Source: Dehalococcoidia bacterium (lineage in GTDB: Bacteria; Chloroflexota; Dehalococcoidia; Bin125). Taken from it: a DNA stretch of 64,000 nt. Numbering within the stretch: position 1 is the first letter of the stretch; each line of letters begins with the position of its first letter. The notes under the pieces were generated by a model that was not told the DNA's origin, made no database searches, and worked only from the letters and a program-made list of their open reading frames with translations. Positions 12,180 to 18,862 of the stretch are shown here, piece by piece. The DNA is taken from contig CBDCPP010000002.1 in NCBI GenBank assembly GCA_965220315.1, positions 45,736 to 109,735 on the forward strand. The letters are read 5' to 3'. The position numbers and the translations under genes are program-made.

Positions 12180-13730
12180 TTAGGCAGCGGCTCCACGGTC
12201 GCGCAGGACGGCGTGCGCTGCATTGTGCCCGGGCGCGCCTGTAACTTCCCCGCCGGGATGGGTACCCGCGCCGCATAGGTAGAGGCCAGGGACAGGAGTG
12301 CGATAGCCGCTCCAGCCCGGGAGCGGGCGGGCGGCAAACATCTGCTGGGGAAGGATATCGAGGTGGCGGATGTTGCCGTCGGTCATGCCGACGCGGGACT
12401 CGATCTCTTCGGGACTGATCAACAACCAATCCTCGACGCAGTCGCGGATATCGGGGGCGTAACTGGCGATGTCATCGAGAAGCTGCTCTCCGACTTCCCT
12501 CCCCCGCTCGGCCCAGGTTCCTTCCCGGAGATGCACTGGTTGGTAGGTCACCCAAGCGGAAAGCAAGTGAGCGCCCGGGGGCGCGAGGGTGGGATCGATA
12601 ACGGTGGGGATTTGGAGCTGCATAAGGGGATGGCGAGTGGGAATGCCGGCCATAGCGTCGCGCCAGCTGGCTTCGATCGCGTCGAGGCCGGGCATGATGC
12701 GGATCATGGCAAGGCGCGATTGGTCGTCGTCCGGGCGGAGGAAGCGGGAGAAATCGGGAAGGCGCTTGAGCACGGCGTGCAACTTGAGCGAGGCCGAGCG
12801 AGTCTTGAGGCGGGCGATCGCAGTGGGAAAGCCATCTGGGAGAGCGGCGGGGTCGACGAGGCGGAGGAAGGTGGTCTTCGGGTCGGCGTTGGAGAGGATG
12901 TACGGAGCTGCGAGCGTCTCGCCGCTCGCAAGGACGACGCCGCACGCGCGGCCGTCTTGGATGACGATTCGCTGGACGGGCGCCTCCGTACGGATGGTAG
13001 CGCCAGCCGCAGTCGCGGCAGCGGCCATAGCTTGGGTGACGCCACCCATGCCACCACGAACGATGCCGTAGTCCTGATCCGGCGTGAGCAGATTGGTCTT
13101 GAAGTACGCCTGGGTAAGAGCGCTGCCGGGGGCGTCGATCTGGCCGAAGTCGCCGGTACCGACAGCAGCGGCGGCGAGGCGGGGATCCTGGAAGGTTCTC
13201 TCCGCTAGGTCACGGAGGGGCACGGTGAGCAGCGTTTCGAGCAAGGCGGCATCGTCGCTGCCTGCAACGTCAGCGGCAAGCTGAGCGAAGGTAGGTGGCT
13301 CGCGCAGGAAGTAGCGCAGCAAGAGCGCGCCTGCACGCTCCCAGAATCGGATCCACGCAGGGTAAGCCTTGGCGTCGGCGGCGGAGAGGGGAGCGATCTC
13401 CTCGGCGGTGCGTTGAGCGTTGTGCCACATGCGGAAATGACTGCCATCGGGAAAAGGGAAAAGGGCAGCAGGATCGAGCGGGTAGATGTGGAGGCCGTGG
13501 TCCCGGAGCCCAAGGTCGTTAATGACCTTAGGCTGCAGCATGTGGGCGATGTAGGCGCAGGTACCGATGCGGTAGCCCGGGAAGGCCTCCTCTGTCACAG
13601 CGGCACCGCCGACGACGGGACGGCGCTCGAGAACGAGGACGCTCAGTCCGGCACGAGCCAGATACCAGGCAGCGACGAGACCGTTGTGTCCGCCGCCGAC
13701 GATAAGACAGTCTGCATCGTTGTCGGACAT
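12180..13730 (-). CDS. Phytoene desaturase-like FAD-dependent oxidoreductase
   Basis: GGGHNGL, LERRPVVGG, GGMG, LYLCGAGTHPGG-V-GAPG. Confidence 0.88.
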   Translation of the reverse strand: MSDNDADCLIVGGGHNGLVAAWYLARAGLSVLVLERRPVVGGAAVTEEAFPGYRIGTCAYIAHMLQPKVINDLGLRDHGLHIYPLDPAALFPFPDGSHFRMWHNAQRTAEEIAPLSAADAKAYPAWIRFWERAGALLLRYFLREPPTFAQLAADVAGSDDAALLETLLTVPLRDLAERTFQDPRLAAAAVGTGDFGQIDAPGSALTQAYFKTNLLTPDQDYGIVRGGMGGVTQAMAAAATAAGATIRTEAPVQRIVIQDGRACGVVLASGETLAAPYILSNADPKTTFLRLVDPAALPDGFPTAIARLKTRSASLKLHAVLKRLPDFSRFLRPDDDQSRLAMIRIMPGLDAIEASWRDAMAGIPTRHPLMQLQIPTVIDPTLAPPGAHLLSAWVTYQPVHLREGTWAERGREVGEQLLDDIASYAPDIRDCVEDWLLISPEEIESRVGMTDGNIRHLDILPQQMFAARPLPGWSGYRTPVPGLYLCGAGTHPGGEVTGAPGHNAAHAVLRDRGAAA

Positions 13731-14923
13731 CAGAAGAACGGTTCCTGAGGCTCAAGCCCGAGCAACACGCGCCCGGCATCCTGCTGCAGCCGATCTGTGA
13801 GGGAGAGGTGTTGCGTGACGACGTGGATGTCCCGGAAGGCGCGCTCTAGGGGGTTGCCGCGCGTGATCGCGCTGGTGCCGGCGAGCGCGTAAGCGATATC
13901 GACAACTTCAGCAGAGCGCCGCCCGGCATGTACGGAGGCGAGATGGATCAACGCTGCGTCGCGCTGGGTCACGGCAGAACCACGAACAGCAGCCTGCTGG
14001 GCAGCATCGACGGTCTCGAAGAAGAAAGCGCGGGCGGCACGGAGACGGCCCTCCGCCTCGGCCAGCTGTAGCTGCACACGAGGGTCATCGCGAAGGGAAG
14101 TAGGAGCGAGGAAAGAGGTCTTGCGGGCGATAACCGGCAGTACGGTGTCGATCGCTCCGCGAGCGATACCGAGGGCCACGGCCGCATTGGATGGCGCCAA
14201 GACGCAGCCCAAGGGCATACAGTAGGCGCGCGACGGTGCCGGGGGTGGCGCGCCGAGAAGGTCAAAGCTGTGCTCGGTGGGAACGAAAACGTCCTCGGCA
14301 GCGAAGTCGTTGCTGCCGGTGCCACAGAGGCCCAGCACGTCCCAAACGTCGATCAGCTCGCATTGGGCGCGCGGGAGAAGCAGCGTCATAACGAGGGGCT
14401 GGCCTTGTGCATCGTTCCGTTGCTCTGCACCGTCCCAGATGGTGCAGTCGGCGACGATCCAAGCACTGTGGTCGACGCCGCTGGTAAAGCGCCAGCGACC
14501 GCTGACTTGGTAGCCACCGGCACAAGCCCGGGCGCGCCCGCCGTTGGTGATGGAAGAGGCGATGACAATTCGAGGGTCAGCGCCAAACAACTCACGGGCC
14601 ACAGGCACGGCCAGCCAACTACCGGCCATGCCATTGCCTATCGCACCAACCATGAGGCACCAACCGGTCGATCCATCTGCGACGGAGACAATTTCGACCG
14701 CTTCAAGGAACTCGGGGGCGAGGGCATCGATACCGCCCAGCGACCGAGAAACGATGAGCTTGAAGAGTCCAGCGTCGGCGAGGGCGTCAACGACCGGCCG
14801 GGCAAGCTGCCGCTGATGTTCGGACTGGTCGGCATGCGCGCGCACTAGCGGCTGGAGCCGCTGCGCGGCCACGAGGGGAGATTCGAGGCGGGTGGGATCC
14901 GGGGTGGAGGTTGAATCTGGCAT
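13730..14923 (-). CDS. Acyl-CoA dehydrogenase-fold flavin-dependent hydroxylase (HsaA/IacA-like)
   Basis: VSGRWRFTSG, WDVLGLCGTGSND, LERAFRDIH; start MPDST; stop overlaps the next start. Confidence 0.82.
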   Translation of the reverse strand: MPDSTSTPDPTRLESPLVAAQRLQPLVRAHADQSEHQRQLARPVVDALADAGLFKLIVSRSLGGIDALAPEFLEAVEIVSVADGSTGWCLMVGAIGNGMAGSWLAVPVARELFGADPRIVIASSITNGGRARACAGGYQVSGRWRFTSGVDHSAWIVADCTIWDGAEQRNDAQGQPLVMTLLLPRAQCELIDVWDVLGLCGTGSNDFAAEDVFVPTEHSFDLLGAPPPAPSRAYCMPLGCVLAPSNAAVALGIARGAIDTVLPVIARKTSFLAPTSLRDDPRVQLQLAEAEGRLRAARAFFFETVDAAQQAAVRGSAVTQRDAALIHLASVHAGRRSAEVVDIAYALAGTSAITRGNPLERAFRDIHVVTQHLSLTDRLQQDAGRVLLGLEPQEPFF

Positions 14924-15061
14924 CGCTCTTATCCCGAGACAGCACCTAGGAGAGAGGGAGGATACCAGGATGCCACGACCGATCCGAAGCGATCGTGGTT
15001 CCATTAGTCTCCAAGGTGCGCAAGGCGATCGGATCGCCGACAGGGCCGACAAGGAGGCACC

Positions 15062-15973
15062 ATGCGAGTGGGATTCATCGGCACGGGCAGCATCGGGGAG
15101 CCGATGGCGCGGCAGCTGCTCTCGGCCGGGCATGAGCTAGTGGTGCACGATGCGCGATCGGAGGCGACCGCGAGCCTGCGCGAGCTCGGCGCGGCGTGGG
15201 GCGCTGACGCGCGGGAGGTGGCCGCGGCGTGCCGGGTAGTGCTGACGTCGCTGCCGGGCCCGGCCGAGGTCGAGGCAGTGGTGACGGGTGCAGACGGGCT
15301 CCTGACAGCGGCGCAGCCAGGCGACGTTCACATCGACCTCAGCAGTAATTCCGTGGCGATGGTACGGCGGCTCCATCGAGAGGAAGCGGCACGCGGGGTG
15401 CTGTACATCGACTGCCCGGTAACAGGGGGCGTGCGCCGAGCGCGGCGTGGAGCGCTGACACTGCTGGCGAGCGGTGAGCGGCAGGCGTTCGAGCGGGTGG
15501 AGCCGTTGCTGCAGGCGCTGGGCGAGCACGTGTTCTATGTGGGCGAGGCAGGCAGCGGTTGTCTGACCAAGTTGATCAACAACGCGATCGTGCTGTGTGC
15601 GGGGCAATTGGTACAGGAAGGGTTGGTACTGGGAAGCAAGCTAGGTCTGGAACCGGAACGATTGTATGAAATGTTGAAGGTGGGGTCGGCGGCGCCGCAT
15701 ATCGGGCTGATGCCGTACATGATCGGCCGGCGGTTCGCGGATCCGACGTTCACACTCGCGCTGGCGAGCAAGGACGTGGGGTTGGCGCTCGAGGCAGCGC
15801 GCGACGCGGAAGTGCCGATGCCGGTGACCGCAGCGGCACAGCAGACGTATTTAGCCGCAATGGGGCGGGGGTTGGGCGAGCAGTCGTTCTTGGCGACGCA
15901 GATCCCGCTCGAGCAGGGAGCCGGCGTGGAGGTGCCGTTGGTGGAGACGGATGCGGGAAGCCAGCGGCTCTAG
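15062..15973 (+). CDS. 3-hydroxyisobutyrate dehydrogenase family NAD(P)-dependent oxidoreductase
   Basis: GFIGTGSIG, DCPVTGG, KLINN, KD motif. Confidence 0.9.
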   Translation: MRVGFIGTGSIGEPMARQLLSAGHELVVHDARSEATASLRELGAAWGADAREVAAACRVVLTSLPGPAEVEAVVTGADGLLTAAQPGDVHIDLSSNSVAMVRRLHREEAARGVLYIDCPVTGGVRRARRGALTLLASGERQAFERVEPLLQALGEHVFYVGEAGSGCLTKLINNAIVLCAGQLVQEGLVLGSKLGLEPERLYEMLKVGSAAPHIGLMPYMIGRRFADPTFTLALASKDVGLALEAARDAEVPMPVTAAAQQTYLAAMGRGLGEQSFLATQIPLEQGAGVEVPLVETDAGSQRL

Positions 15974-15999: not shown

Positions 16000-17412
16000 G
16001 TGCAAGCAACATCAGATGAGCGCTACTTAGCGCAAGCGACGATCGAGGAGATCGGGGAACGGATTCGGCGGCGAGAGGTATCGCCAGTAGAAGTCACGCA
16101 GCTGACACTCGATCGAATCGAACGCCTCAACCCGAAGATCAACGCGTACTACACGGTCTTCGCCGAGCAGGCACTGGCGCTGGCGCGCGGCTTGGAGGCC
16201 GAGGTCGCGGCAGGGGTGTACCGGGGGCCGTTGCACGGGATTCCGATCGCGATCAAGGACATCTACGAGGCGGGACCCACGACGTGCGGGAGTGAGCCGC
16301 TGGTGGGGTACGTAGCGGAGCGGGAATGCGCGACGGTGCGGCAGCTGAAGGCGGCGGGGGCAATCGTGGTGGGGAAGGCGGCGACGTATGAGTTCGCGTT
16401 CGGGGTGCAGACGCGCGCATCGCACTTCGCGCCGACACTGAACGCTTGGGACGCGCGCCGGGAATGCGGAGGGTCGAGCAGCGGCACAGCAGGAGCGATC
16501 GCGGCGGGACTGGCATATGCAGGGATGGGGAGCTGCAGCGGCGGGTCGATCCGGTGGCCGGCGCAGTGCTGCTTCCACGTGGGGTTGAAGCCGACCTACG
16601 GACGGGTGAGCCGGGCGGGGATCTATCCGCTGGCGTGGAGCCTGGACCATCCGGGGCCGCTGGCGCGCACAGTGACCGACGCCGCTTATATGTTGCAAGG
16701 GTGCGCAGGGTACGATCCCGACGATCCTGCTTCCGCAGATGTACCCGTGCCGAATTTCGCGTCGAAACTGGGCCGCGAGATCAAGGGGATGCGGATCGGG
16801 GTGCTGCGCGACCTGTTCGAGAATGGCTGCGATCCCAAAGTGCGCGCGACATTCGAGGCGGCGTTGCCGGTGTTCGAGCGTCTGGGCGCGCGCATCGTGA
16901 CGGTGCCGACGATCTCGCACGCGCAGTTGACGGCGATCGCGCTGCCGCTGCTATGGAGTGAGGCCGGCGCGGTCCATCGGAGCAACCTGCGGCAGCGCGG
17001 GGACGAGTACAACCCGCATACGCGGCAGGCGCTGCTGTGGGGGCTGTTAGTGAGCGCCGGTTACAGCAACCTGGCCAACCGCGCGCGCGCGCAGGTGACG
17101 GCGGCGCTGCGGCAGGCCCTGCATGCACAGGCTGACGCCTTCGTCTTGCCGACGACATGCTTCCAAGGTCCGCCGCTGGTGCTCGACGACACGCCAGGGT
17201 TTGGGGCACGGCTCGACCGGGGAGCCCTGCACACTGCGATCTTCAACCTCACAGGGGCACCGGCGATCCAAGTACCGTGCGGGTGGGACGCGGACGGGCT
17301 ACCAGTCGGGATGCAGATCAGCGCGGCCGCTTTCGACGAAGAAACGATGTTGCAGGTGGCGTACGCGTACGAGCAGGAGGCGGGATGGTTCCGCCAGCGA
17401 CCGGATATCTAG
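16000..17412 (+). CDS. Amidase signature family protein
   Basis: GPLHGIPIAIKD, GGSSSG, GGSIRWPA, GLKPTYGRVS. Confidence 0.92.
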   Translation: MQATSDERYLAQATIEEIGERIRRREVSPVEVTQLTLDRIERLNPKINAYYTVFAEQALALARGLEAEVAAGVYRGPLHGIPIAIKDIYEAGPTTCGSEPLVGYVAERECATVRQLKAAGAIVVGKAATYEFAFGVQTRASHFAPTLNAWDARRECGGSSSGTAGAIAAGLAYAGMGSCSGGSIRWPAQCCFHVGLKPTYGRVSRAGIYPLAWSLDHPGPLARTVTDAAYMLQGCAGYDPDDPASADVPVPNFASKLGREIKGMRIGVLRDLFENGCDPKVRATFEAALPVFERLGARIVTVPTISHAQLTAIALPLLWSEAGAVHRSNLRQRGDEYNPHTRQALLWGLLVSAGYSNLANRARAQVTAALRQALHAQADAFVLPTTCFQGPPLVLDDTPGFGARLDRGALHTAIFNLTGAPAIQVPCGWDADGLPVGMQISAAAFDEETMLQVAYAYEQEAGWFRQRPDI

Positions 17413-17435
17413 CAAGTGTCCCCGAGGGAGAGCGA

Positions 17436-18005
17436 TCAATCGTGGACGAAGCGGAGGGCAGTGCGGTCACGGGGGTCGGTAGCGAGGCCAAGGTAGCGGC
17501 GGCGGAGGTCATCCCAAAGGGTTAAGCGCGCCCAGTCCGGGCTCGCCAGGTGCTTGTCGTCGTCATCGAGGAAGGGGTTGGGGAGGAAGACCGTGAGCTG
17601 CTGCTCGTCCTTGCCGTTGAAGAGCCGCAGGCCCCAGGAAACCGGGCGGGCATCGGGATCGAGACGGCGGTAGAACTCAGCGCGAGCGGTGCGGCGGTGG
17701 TAGGCAAGACGGGAATCGACGGGCTGATCGAGCCCGCGATGGGCGTCGATACAGATATGCAGGTGCCAGGCATCGAAGGCAACGGTGAGATAGCCGTCAA
17801 GCATGGCGACGGTGACCGGCGCGGCCGGGGCGCGAATCTCCAGCACGGAACCCTGGATGAGAACACCGAAGCGGATCGCGGCCCAATGATCGCGGAAGAG
17901 TTCCGTGCACAGCGGGACCAGCGTCGTGGCGGAGGTGTCGAGGGGAAAGAGTTCGAGCGTGCCGTTGCCGGGCTCGGTAACAGTTCGGCTGATGCCGGCG
18001 CCCAT
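17436..18005 (-). CDS. Protein of unknown function, coupled to the NHase accessory gene
   Basis: Natural-looking composition with WHLHICI, SWGLRLFNG, LPNPFL motifs; start shares base 18005 with the upstream stop. Confidence 0.75.
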   Translation of the reverse strand: MGAGISRTVTEPGNGTLELFPLDTSATTLVPLCTELFRDHWAAIRFGVLIQGSVLEIRAPAAPVTVAMLDGYLTVAFDAWHLHICIDAHRGLDQPVDSRLAYHRRTARAEFYRRLDPDARPVSWGLRLFNGKDEQQLTVFLPNPFLDDDDKHLASPDWARLTLWDDLRRRYLGLATDPRDRTALRFVHD

Positions 18006-18859
18006 CAGAAGATCTCGTCGCGCTCGCCGAATTCGTACTCGTTGGTGCGTTCGGTGACCTCCGGGTCGAGTGTCACGTCTTTTTCGGCAAGGATGTCCTC
18101 AAAGGCGGCCAACCAACACTTGTAGTAGTCAAACGGATCCTGCCCGCGCTCAGCCTCCGCGATACGGTCGATCAGGCGCTCGCGAAACTCGTCCCATGTG
18201 TAGAAGTGCTGGTCCTCCAATGCGGCCGCCATGCCAAAGATGCGCCCGTGCCAAGGGTCGTCAAAAACGAGCTCGCCGTTCTTGCGCGGGAGAGCAGCGG
18301 TCCCCTGCCAGCGTGCGAGCACGCGCTCGGGCGGCTCTGTGCCGACGTTTCGGTCGGCCTCGAGCCTGGCGGCAGGCATGGGGCAGGCAGCGCTCTGCGC
18401 CGCGAGGCGGCGGCGCCAGTCGCGGCGATCGTCGAGGGGGAGGCCATCGGGGCGGTCTTGCCACTGCGAAGCAGTGAAGTGGAGATCCGCCAGCGGAGCG
18501 GGGGGCGGAAGGTAAGCATCAGCGTCGAGCATGGCATCGATATAGTCGTAAAGAGCGAGAATGAGTGGCTCACTGTTGACCGATTGGAACCAAAGGGCGC
18601 GCCCGTCGAAGAGGAGCAGGACGACGTTGGCGAGGGCGCAGGGGCCGAGGCAACCGCCGATCGAGAGGTGGACGATGTTGCGGAAGCGGCGGCGCTCCCA
18701 TTCGGTGTGGTAGAGCTCGGCCGGCACGGGGGCAAAGCCATCCTCGGTCCGGCCGCAGCAGCAACCAGACTCACACACGAAGAGCATGCCGCGCATGCGG
18801 GCGACGTTGACGAGGACGCCGTCTGGGCGCGTGACGAGATTGCGGCGGCGCTGCAGCAT
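18005..18859 (-). CDS. Nitrile hydratase accessory protein fused to an N-terminal Cys-rich thioredoxin-like (2Fe-2S ferredoxin-type) domain
   Basis: N-terminal FVCESGCCCG...GGCLGPC; C-terminal LPRKNGELVFDDPWHGRIFGMA...WDEFR...YYKCWLAAFE typical of NHase beta-like accessory proteins. Confidence 0.82.
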   Translation of the reverse strand: MLQRRRNLVTRPDGVLVNVARMRGMLFVCESGCCCGRTEDGFAPVPAELYHTEWERRRFRNIVHLSIGGCLGPCALANVVLLLFDGRALWFQSVNSEPLILALYDYIDAMLDADAYLPPPAPLADLHFTASQWQDRPDGLPLDDRRDWRRRLAAQSAACPMPAARLEADRNVGTEPPERVLARWQGTAALPRKNGELVFDDPWHGRIFGMAAALEDQHFYTWDEFRERLIDRIAEAERGQDPFDYYKCWLAAFEDILAEKDVTLDPEVTERTNEYEFGERDEIF

Positions 18860-18862
18860 CCG

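Follow-up and report, generated by a model that had tools for sequence, protein, structure and literature searches.

Results and discussion

A two-domain maturation gene in a nitrile hydratase operon

We analysed a stretch of 64,000 nucleotides from a Dehalococcoidia bacterium (GenBank assembly GCA_965220315.1, contig CBDCPP010000002.1, positions 45,736 to 109,735 of the forward strand), referred to here as the window, in which an operon for nitrile hydratase (NHase) encodes a two-domain maturation protein, P0001. Four tightly packed genes on the minus strand encode the beta subunit, the alpha subunit, the P0001 fusion and a DUF7676 protein. The genes and the parts of P0001 are given below in coordinates of the window, with the basis of each assignment in brackets.

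19486..20238 (-), NHase beta subunit (PF21006 and PF02211; TIGR03888, 255 bits)
18863..19462 (-), NHase alpha subunit, cobalt type (PF02979, 4.1e-80; TIGR01323, 271.9 bits, cut-off 249.85)
18005..18859 (-), two-domain NHase maturation protein P0001, 284 amino acids (aa), whole gene (open reading frame and translation; full-length homologues)
18455..18859 (-), N-domain, residues 1-135, predicted fold at about 22-133, with six invariant Cys (AlphaFold2, Foldseek, VIA, family profile)
18755..18775 (-), motif C29-E-S-G-C33-C34-C35, the predicted first ligand Cys and the CCC triplet (TGT GAG TCT GGT TGC TGC TGC)
18638..18652 (-), motif C70-L-G-P-C74, the predicted third and fourth ligand positions (DNA; GCLGPC of FeSI 5abr)
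18422-18478 (-), tail motif F-x4-W-Q-x-R-P-D-G-x-P-x-x-D-x-R, residues 128-146 (alignment)
18308..18454 (-), linker, residues 136-184, variable except for a conserved start (alignment of 12 proteins)
18008..18307 (-), accessory domain resembling the beta-subunit N-terminus, residues 185-284, with an invariant C-terminal E-F-G-E-R (TIGR03889, PF21006)
17436..18005 (-), DUF7676 gene (PF24724, 1.4e-66)

The P0001 frame is uninterrupted over its 284 aa, with no internal stop, and the gene is translationally coupled on both sides: its ATG lies 3 nt past the alpha stop, and its TGA shares one base with the ATG of the DUF7676 gene. Because of this one-base overlap, DUF7676 probably belongs to the operon as its fourth member. 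A first-pass annotation, made from the sequence alone, had described one continuous reading frame with an N-terminal pattern of six Cys (C-x3-CCC-G, then CLGPC) ahead of a complete NHase accessory domain. The frame, the pattern (C29-x3-C33-C34-C35-G36 and C70-L-G-P-C74) and the completeness of the accessory domain were all borne out. The count of six is correct for the N-domain and too low for the whole protein, to which the linker and the accessory domain each add one non-conserved Cys.

The alpha subunit encoded next to P0001 is of the cobalt type (Co-type). All metal-labelled chains in the PDB that outscored 1ahj and 2ahj against it were cobalt-containing NHases (E 3e-90 to 4e-68); the chains of 1ahj and 2ahj themselves, which we take to be the Fe-type NHase of Rhodococcus, matched at about 1e-53. 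An 11-residue motif of the alpha subunit, presumably a marker of Co-type NHase, was invariant in 29/29 aligned alpha subunits of related loci. Like the Co-type activators P14K, NhlE and NhhG (TIGR03889), P0001 is encoded directly after alpha, and beta-alpha-activator is the gene order that PMC3511329 describes for swapping-type Co-NHases.

The N-domain as a predicted thioredoxin-like ferredoxin

When residues 1-135 were compared with Pfam (E ≤ 10), no family was matched and the sole hit was a meaningless one at 0.065. A single-sequence search of the PDB with the N-domain reached the Azotobacter vinelandii ferredoxin FeSI (5abr) at only E 0.29. The identity of the domain came only from its family profile and its fold, not from a direct family search. 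An AlphaFold2 model built from a 57-sequence alignment had a mean predicted local distance difference test score (pLDDT) of 95 and a predicted template modelling score of 0.87. When this model was run with VIA-align against 48,161 chains, the top 17 rows were all thioredoxin-like [2Fe-2S] ferredoxin chains, headed by Aquifex Fd4 (1f37_A, Z 11.5, root-mean-square deviation 2.3 over 95 aligned residues) and FeSI (5abr_B, Z 11.2), with StnB (8oh5) at Z 10.9, the Rhodobacter capsulatus chain 9jn8 at Z 9.4 and NuoE, HoxF and HydB types down to Z 7.7; plain thioredoxins reached Z 7.1 at most. Foldseek returned the same ferredoxin family (8iuf_V2 at 7.6e-4; 1m2b and 5abr at about 4e-3).

The family profile of the N-domain matched FeSI 5abr at E 9.9e-6 and HydB-type domains at 4e-4 and 0.019. 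In the profile alignment, C29, one Cys of the CCC triplet, C70 and C74 fell on Cys of FeSI and HydB, which we take to be their cluster ligands, and the GCLGPC of FeSI is repeated in the N-domain letter for letter. The arrangement C29-x4-C34-x35-C70-x3-C74 has what we take to be the NuoE-type spacing. By profile and model, then, the N-domain is a diverged thioredoxin-like ferredoxin with a full predicted ligand set and two extra invariant Cys, and the assignment to this fold made in the first-pass annotation agrees with AlphaFold2, VIA, Foldseek and the family profile alike. It resembles its relatives (1f37/1m2a, 5abr, NuoE or 24-kDa subunits, HoxF/HydB) in fold (Z 11.5-7.7) and in the Cys at the four ligand positions. 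It differs from them in lacking a PF01257 match, in an additional N-terminal beta-hairpin (residues 8-18 of the model), in the CCC triplet and the conserved tail, and in being fused to cobalt-insertion proteins, whereas theirs are fused to dehydrogenase modules.

All six Cys were kept in 92/92 fused proteins, comprising 65/65 with the N-domain first and an NHase accessory domain behind it, 3/3 with the accessory domain first, 20/20 fusions to the cobaltochelatase subunit CobN and 4/4 fusions to a YHS domain. Among 63 unfused or fragmentary relatives, C33 (kept in 58/63) and C34 (60/63) were the commonest losses, partly in frame-shifted entries. That C33 and C34 are lost most often fits four core ligands plus auxiliary Cys. 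His residues were also considered as extra ligands (H51, H64 and position 92) and set aside as such: H51 and position 92 vary, the window protein having Q92. H64 was kept in 92/92 fused proteins, but in 46/62 of the other relatives.

The family to which the N-domain belongs has no name, and the closest named family, judging from sequence comparison, is DUF1636 (PF07845), the 'metal-binding protein' of cobalamin operons. PF07845 matched 13/57 relatives below threshold (best 24.3 bits, cut-off 31.6) and did not match residues 1-135 of the window protein in the Pfam search; the nearest ESM-Atlas clusters to the N-domain (score 0.96) were DUF1636-related. Both families are related to thioredoxin-like ferredoxins. 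They differ in that DUF1636 is a stand-alone protein and that DUF1636-like proteins occupy a separate branch of the tree described below. According to PMC4520260, DUF1636 has been modelled on Aquifex Fd4 as a thioredoxin-like ferredoxin, and a preprint (bioRxiv 10.64898/2025.12.19.695462) places it at the head of a cobalamin operon under riboswitch control.

A Co-type activator domain behind a conserved tail and a variable linker

The C-terminal part of P0001 matched the NHase accessory equivalog TIGR03889 over residues 199-266 at 69.8 bits, above the cut-off of 46, and PF21006 (NHase_beta_N) over residues 185-275 at 1.1e-12. Its closest solved sequence was the beta subunit of a Co-type NHase (3qyh_B, E 6.4e-4). 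On these matches it is an ordinary Co-type activator domain, a putative mimic of the N-terminal part of the beta subunit, and in both respects it is like P14K, NhlE and NhhG. Co-type activators are small, single-domain proteins of about 100-150 aa. P0001, in contrast, has double that size, since a 135-aa, six-Cys domain of predicted ferredoxin fold and a 50-aa linker are added in front. The two also differ at the C-terminus: E276-F-G-E-R280 was invariant in 12 aligned full-length proteins, giving the P0001 family an acidic EFGER(D/E) end, whereas P14K is described in PMC7193024 as having a positively charged, flexible tail.

About 50 poorly conserved residues separate the N-domain from the accessory domain, apart from a conserved start that reads W133 Q134 x R136 P137 D138 G139 x P141 x x D144 x R146. 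Apart from the C-terminus, the invariant residues in the 12 full-length proteins were the six Cys together with F128, W133, Q134, R136, P137, D138, G139, P141, D144 and R146. The tail motif of residues 128-146 could be a docking element. It stands directly after the folded domain in 12/12 NHase-type proteins and in one Dehalococcoidia CobN fusion (L067), and is absent from the Anaerolineae-type CobN fusions compared.

The fusion is widespread and strongly conserved

A homologue search with P0001, covering 5.8 billion clustered proteins, returned 993 relatives at E ≤ 0.001; alignments of the best 120 spanned 96-100% of the query at 58-91% identity. We also surveyed genomes, one per species. A relative was encoded in 157 stretches, and 80 loci were kept. 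Carriers were mostly Chloroflexota (Dehalococcoidia) and Methylomirabilota (Rokubacteria), with a few bins labelled otherwise, and the loci closest to the window (89-90% identical) came from Dehalococcoidia/Chloroflexota metagenome-assembled genomes (MAGs). The fusion, counted when an accessory domain followed within 400 nt of the N-domain on the same strand, was present in 59/80 loci. Wherever complete alpha and beta genes were both found (48/48 loci), the order was beta-alpha-fusion, with the end of alpha within 200 nt.

The fusion is therefore genuine. The first-pass annotation had named an assembly artefact as a possible refutation. In an artefact, neighbouring genes for a small ferredoxin and a small activator would have been merged by misassembly, a frameshift or a gene-calling error. 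Nothing was found in support of such a merger beyond the fact that some relatives are frame-shifted or truncated (P0178, P0193, P0194). Against it stand the same continuous frame in 59/80 species genomes and in the 993 database proteins (the best 120 at full length), together with a window genome of 2.5 Mb that is 97% complete in 2 contigs and a frame without a stop. These observations rule the artefact out, and we regard it as vanishingly improbable.

Relative to the window, and with two near-identical loci left out, median identities over 46 loci were 72.8% for alpha, 69.7% for the N-domain, 54.2% for the accessory domain and 50.2% for beta. The identity of the N-domain is close to that of alpha, so the N-domain is as constrained as the catalytic subunit. 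Where homologues had database names, these were 'nitrile hydratase accessory protein' or 'cobaltochelatase CobN'. Many of the fused activators of about 280 aa carry the second label in one source, evidently because they share the N-domain with CobN, and our assignment corrects it.

The same domain is found on CobN

The first-pass annotation had pointed to a similar GCCCG/CLGPC domain on CobN cobaltochelatases near cobalamin genes and had proposed that the domain is portable. We found both to be so. Fusions of the N-domain to CobN occupied 11/80 genome loci, with the N-domain 64-74% identical to that of the window. Taken together with the genome sample described below, the CobN proteins headed by the domain are 1412-1592 aa long and belong to cobalamin operons of Chloroflexota. 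In the four CobN-fusion loci that we annotated, the fusion genes (1448-1592 aa) lay among genes for CobQ, CobD, CobO, CobT and CbtA. Beyond CobN, the domain was joined to the NHase accessory domain in both orders and to YHS and HMA domains.

Searching 1.84 billion representatives exhaustively with HMMER for the N-domain gave a family of 409 representative clusters at E ≤ 0.001, 60 of them at E ≤ 1e-30. We scanned 89 of the best 150 relatives with Pfam, those omitted being mostly short fragments. Eleven carried CobN-Mg_chel. Among them, P0140 (1484 aa) and P0154 (1449 aa) are complete and have the N-domain at the very N-terminus. NHase_beta_N was found in 4/89, once behind the N-domain (P0130) and three times in front of it (P0136, P0138, P0160). 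YHS was present in 4/89, one of which also had HMA, and an ABC ATPase in 1/89; an FecCD fragment, an MGMT DNA-binding domain and a weak MoCoBD match were single cases. Most of the other scanned relatives had no family and were stand-alone or truncated, and some of those listed as stand-alone are truncated CobN fusions; P0143, for instance, ends in the first residues of CobN.

The 151 Chloroflexota genomes that we sampled gave a similar picture. The N-domain was present in 25 and a CobN-family gene in 30 (a count that includes the unpublished genome G043, and in which CobN-family matches take in the Mg-chelatase BchH), with both in 16. N-domain and CobN shared one open frame in 14/16 of these, 13 of them 1412-1543 aa long and the other, in G126, running to the contig end; the open frames of G000 (285 aa) and G073 (293 aa) had the length of the NHase fusion. 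By this count, the N-domain in Chloroflexota sits mostly at the N-terminus of CobN. The known partners of the N-domain are cobalt-insertion systems, and its presence on both an NHase activator and CobN suggests that it is a module, so far unstudied, for loading proteins with cobalt.

Several individual proteins and loci add detail. Distant family members (P0203, P0217, P0224, P0226, P0271 and P0207) are fusions to YHS, once with HMA, to an ABC-transporter ATPase and to an FecCD fragment. P0136 (408 aa) appears to combine three parts, an accessory domain at residues 15-110, the N-domain at 123-251 and then a stretch that aligns with the N-terminal region of the N-domain-CobN protein of L067 (47% identity over 287 residues), and is probably cut by the contig end. 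In one cobalamin operon (L077:5614-5967, plus strand) a 118-aa PF01257 ferredoxin (2.1e-6) is encoded directly upstream of the N-domain-CobN gene; at the same place in L074 there is a 90-aa open reading frame without a family.

Repeated recruitment of the N-domain

We calculated a quick maximum-likelihood tree of 155 N-domains over 134 columns, with branch support from the Shimodaira-Hasegawa-like approximate likelihood ratio test (SH-aLRT) only; many of its forks are unresolved and no root was inferred. DUF1636-like proteins formed a separate and fully supported outgroup branch (100, starred), and CobN-borne N-domains were scattered over several deep branches. All 65/65 N-first NHase domains fell into one group of 82 rows (SH-aLRT 91, not starred), which also includes 17 unlabelled rows and has Dehalococcoidia CobN fusions (L067, L069) among its neighbours. 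The accessory-first proteins were placed elsewhere, P0136 with P0138 (98, starred) and P0160 within a CobN clade (99, starred), and the YHS-fused forms made up one starred clade. Starred branches force at least two changes of the NHase-accessory label. Together with the opposite domain orders, the tree thus points to at least two independent unions of the N-domain with the NHase accessory domain. A third such union is probable on the same sequences, and fusion to CobN was likely the first state of the N-domain.

Four N-domains that are 69-70% identical to that of the window (L065, L066, L076 and L079) are nested in the NHase-type clade and have neither an accessory domain nor NHase genes nearby. 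Their neighbours include a hydantoinase, an Na/Ca exchanger, an enolase-superfamily gene and an Ldh_2 gene.

A candidate redox module for cobalt insertion

What might such a domain do for both proteins? Our leading proposal, to which we give slightly less than an even chance, is that the N-domain is a redox module with a [2Fe-2S] cluster, attached to the chaperone and serving cobalt insertion. We favour a redox function because the predicted fold is that of an electron carrier and keeps both the cluster loop and all four ligand positions; its clients, CobN and NHase activators, point to the step of cobalt insertion itself. A [2Fe-2S] cluster would be held by C29, C35 or C34, C70 and C74, with the remaining two Cys of the CCC triplet adjoining it. 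The accessory domain would hold apo-alpha in the manner of known activators in their alpha-e2 swapping intermediate, and the tethered iron-sulphur (Fe-S) domain could then act as a one-electron or thiol redox partner when cobalt is inserted. It would keep the Cys of the alpha CTLCSC motif and Co(II) in the state that insertion requires, and would accept the electron given up when Co(II) becomes Co(III). On CobN, the N-domain would play a corresponding part, in redox or in hand-over, during insertion of cobalt into the corrin.

Such a function would fit into what has been described for NHase. PMC7193024 gives an account of Co-type activators in which an alpha-activator intermediate forms, cobalt is inserted and alpha is swapped into the apo-enzyme; direct transfer of cobalt by the activator is reported there too, and a redox function is proposed for the activator since oxidation of the Cys follows cobalt insertion. 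The N-domain would be a built-in version of the 'redox function' hitherto ascribed to the activator. Co-folding of alpha with the N-domain lent the proposal weak support, with a score of 0.36 against 0.00 for the best of 3 controls, a contact agreement between runs of at least 76% and a partner pLDDT of at least 75. The mark applied to such scores was reached by 116/157 solved complexes and 2/215 mismatched pairs, and scores of 0.60 or below include 18 of the 157 solved complexes that pass and both of the mismatches that pass.

A number of points weigh against a redox module. The same co-folding, weak as support, returned no interface. The assignment of a cluster depends on sequence and predicted fold: PF01257 (2Fe-2S_thioredx) did not match residues 1-135 at E ≤ 10, and the one ferredoxin hit in NCBIfam scored 14.8 bits against a cut-off of 195. 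A direct metal-thiolate site would account for six invariant Cys, a CCC triplet and the fusions to YHS and HMA no less well than a cluster does. All surveyed carriers are uncultured MAGs, and catalysis by CobN is not known to have a redox requirement. Finally, an Fe-S appendage may be dispensable, as PMC7689651 reports for CbiX-L, in which deletion of the Fe-S extension left cobalt insertion unaffected. The comparison with CbiX-L is itself a partial one. Both proteins would have an Fe-S centre (predicted for the N-domain) appended to a cobalt-inserting protein, but that of CbiX-L is of the [4Fe-4S] type and part of an MXCXXC/His-rich tail at the C-terminus, dispensable for chelation in vitro, for which metal storage or delivery has been proposed, and the N-domain is thioredoxin-like (PMC7689651).

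The example of CbiX-L leads to a different view of the N-domain, as a non-essential sensor or stabiliser. A cluster or structural metal would report oxygen, redox or metal status, or would stabilise or oligomerise the activator, and the domain would tune the maturation of NHase and CobN while having no part in cobalt insertion. Fe-S centres on chelatases are not required for catalysis in the account of PMC7689651; NHase maturation depends on oxygen through oxidation of the Cys, and gating by an oxygen-sensitive cluster is conceivable; and the stand-alone copies of L066, L076 and L079 lie in unrelated neighbourhoods. However, the N-domain is conserved to the same degree as the catalytic subunit, was fused repeatedly and independently to the same partner family, and keeps its six Cys in 92/92 fused proteins, all of which argues for a direct and constrained role. 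We consider a sensor or stabiliser unlikely.

Cobalt supply and the comparison with COG0523

A second set of proteins offers a comparison with the N-domain by role. The GTPases of COG0523 with a CxCC metal motif are described as the activators of Fe-type NHase (Nha3/epsilon; PMC7193024), and another member, CobW, as the supplier of Co(II) to CobN (PMC7689651). COG0523 proteins and the N-domain therefore serve the same two client systems, the former with CxCC and the latter with CxxxCCC, and the likeness is one of role only (PMC7689651, PMC7193024): the predicted fold of the N-domain is unrelated, and P0001 has no G3E GTPase (PF02492) domain.

This parallel brings in the possibility that the N-domain is a cobalt chaperone free of any Fe-S cluster. 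On a scaffold of ferredoxin type, the six Cys would make up a Co(II)-thiolate site, either mononuclear or binuclear, from which Co(II) would be handed to the tethered client, alpha or CobN, much as from the CxCC site of COG0523 proteins but with no GTPase. The main clients share only a need for Co(II) supply, COG0523 proteins serve both systems through a Cys-rich CxCC motif (PMC7689651, PMC7193024), the metal-ion-binding YHS/HMA domains are partners in 4/89 scanned relatives, and the invariant CCC triplet exceeds the four ligands that a cluster needs. CobW itself was not found above its equivalog cut-off in any of the 151 sampled Chloroflexota genomes (0/151) or of 5 further CobN-fusion genomes (0/5), which makes another cobalt supplier plausible in Chloroflexota. 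The window genome has one copy of the N-domain, in the NHase operon, and no CobN, so NHase is the only evident client there; its two PF02492 G3E genes lie far from the operon. On the other side, a pure cobalt site would need neither the GCLGPC loop nor all four of the canonical ligand positions for a [2Fe-2S] cluster, yet these are kept, and small single-domain Co-type activators are reported in PMC7193024 to transfer cobalt themselves.

The distribution of COG0523-like genes (E ≤ 1e-10) also speaks against a cluster-free chaperone, since no anticorrelation was seen: such genes were present in 11/16 genomes with a CobN fusion and in 5/14 with a CobN-family gene and no N-domain. The comparison is descriptive, as the genomes are related, the CobN family includes BchH, and the 14 include G043, which has no COG0523-like match. 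Replacement of CobW by the N-domain is not supported, COG0523-like genes being no rarer where CobN carries it. We regard a cluster-free cobalt chaperone as the main rival to the redox module and as less likely than it.

In a broader and speculative scheme, which we advance with low confidence, the six-Cys domain would be an unrecognised, dedicated cobalt-insertion module for both corrin (CobN) and non-corrin (NHase alpha) routes. It would have been recruited repeatedly by fusion and would do the hand-over job of COG0523 proteins without nucleotide hydrolysis, possibly through a hybrid site at which a [2Fe-2S] cluster and the spare Cys pair would jointly bind cobalt and tune its redox state, with DUF7676, its ChuX/HutX-like predicted fold and its three His and one Cys as a further part of that maturation system.

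Significance and relation to published work

How cobalt is delivered and oxidised in Co-type NHase is debated, with subunit swapping set against direct transfer and with an activator 'redox function' that is unexplained in PMC7193024. In P0001 the part with a putative role in redox or metal handling is a domain of its own, well folded in the model and very conserved, that can be deleted, mutated and examined by spectroscopy, which makes the question directly testable. The copy on CobN bears on why chelatases carry Fe-S centres, several of which are of unknown role according to PMC7689651, and on how CobN obtains cobalt in phyla in which no CobW was found. NHase is also an industrial enzyme, used in the production of acrylamide and nicotinamide.

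The first-pass annotation had presented the module as a candidate new one. This does not hold for the proteins, which are already in public databases under automatic names. It does hold for the architecture and the domain family as far as published descriptions go: we found no publication on either or on the link to CobN, in a search that left most subscription literature outside. The B12 comparative genomics of Rodionov et al. in 2003 reportedly may mention such a gene. The results also give this family, which has at least 409 representative clusters and no name in Pfam, a working annotation.

DUF7676 and other neighbouring genes

DUF7676 adjoins the fusion operon on the same strand in 19/59 loci, downstream of the activator in 4 (as in the window) and upstream of beta in 15. 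The motif W80-H81-x-H83-x-C85-I86-x-x-H89 was invariant in 20 DUF7676 sequences. An AlphaFold2 model (pLDDT 90.8) resembled the haem-binding fold of ChuX, HutX and HemS, with 3na2 at Z 10.6, HutX 5exv at Z 9.4, 2ph0 at Z 9.1 and 3fm2 at Z 8.8, and the next unrelated chain at 5.2. Foldseek gave 17 matches at E ≤ 0.001, and those listed, about 12, were all of the ChuX/HutX/HemS family. It is a reasonable guess from this model that DUF7676 is a metal- or tetrapyrrole-binding helper of NHase maturation.

No Rfam family matched positions 17000-21500 at E ≤ 0.1, so no regulatory RNA was found around the operon. An amidase gene at 16000-17412 on the plus strand converges on the NHase operon, the usual pairing for conversion of nitrile to amide to acid. 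Beside the amidase gene, within 13730-15973, lie genes resembling those for 3-hydroxyisobutyrate dehydrogenase and acyl-CoA dehydrogenase.

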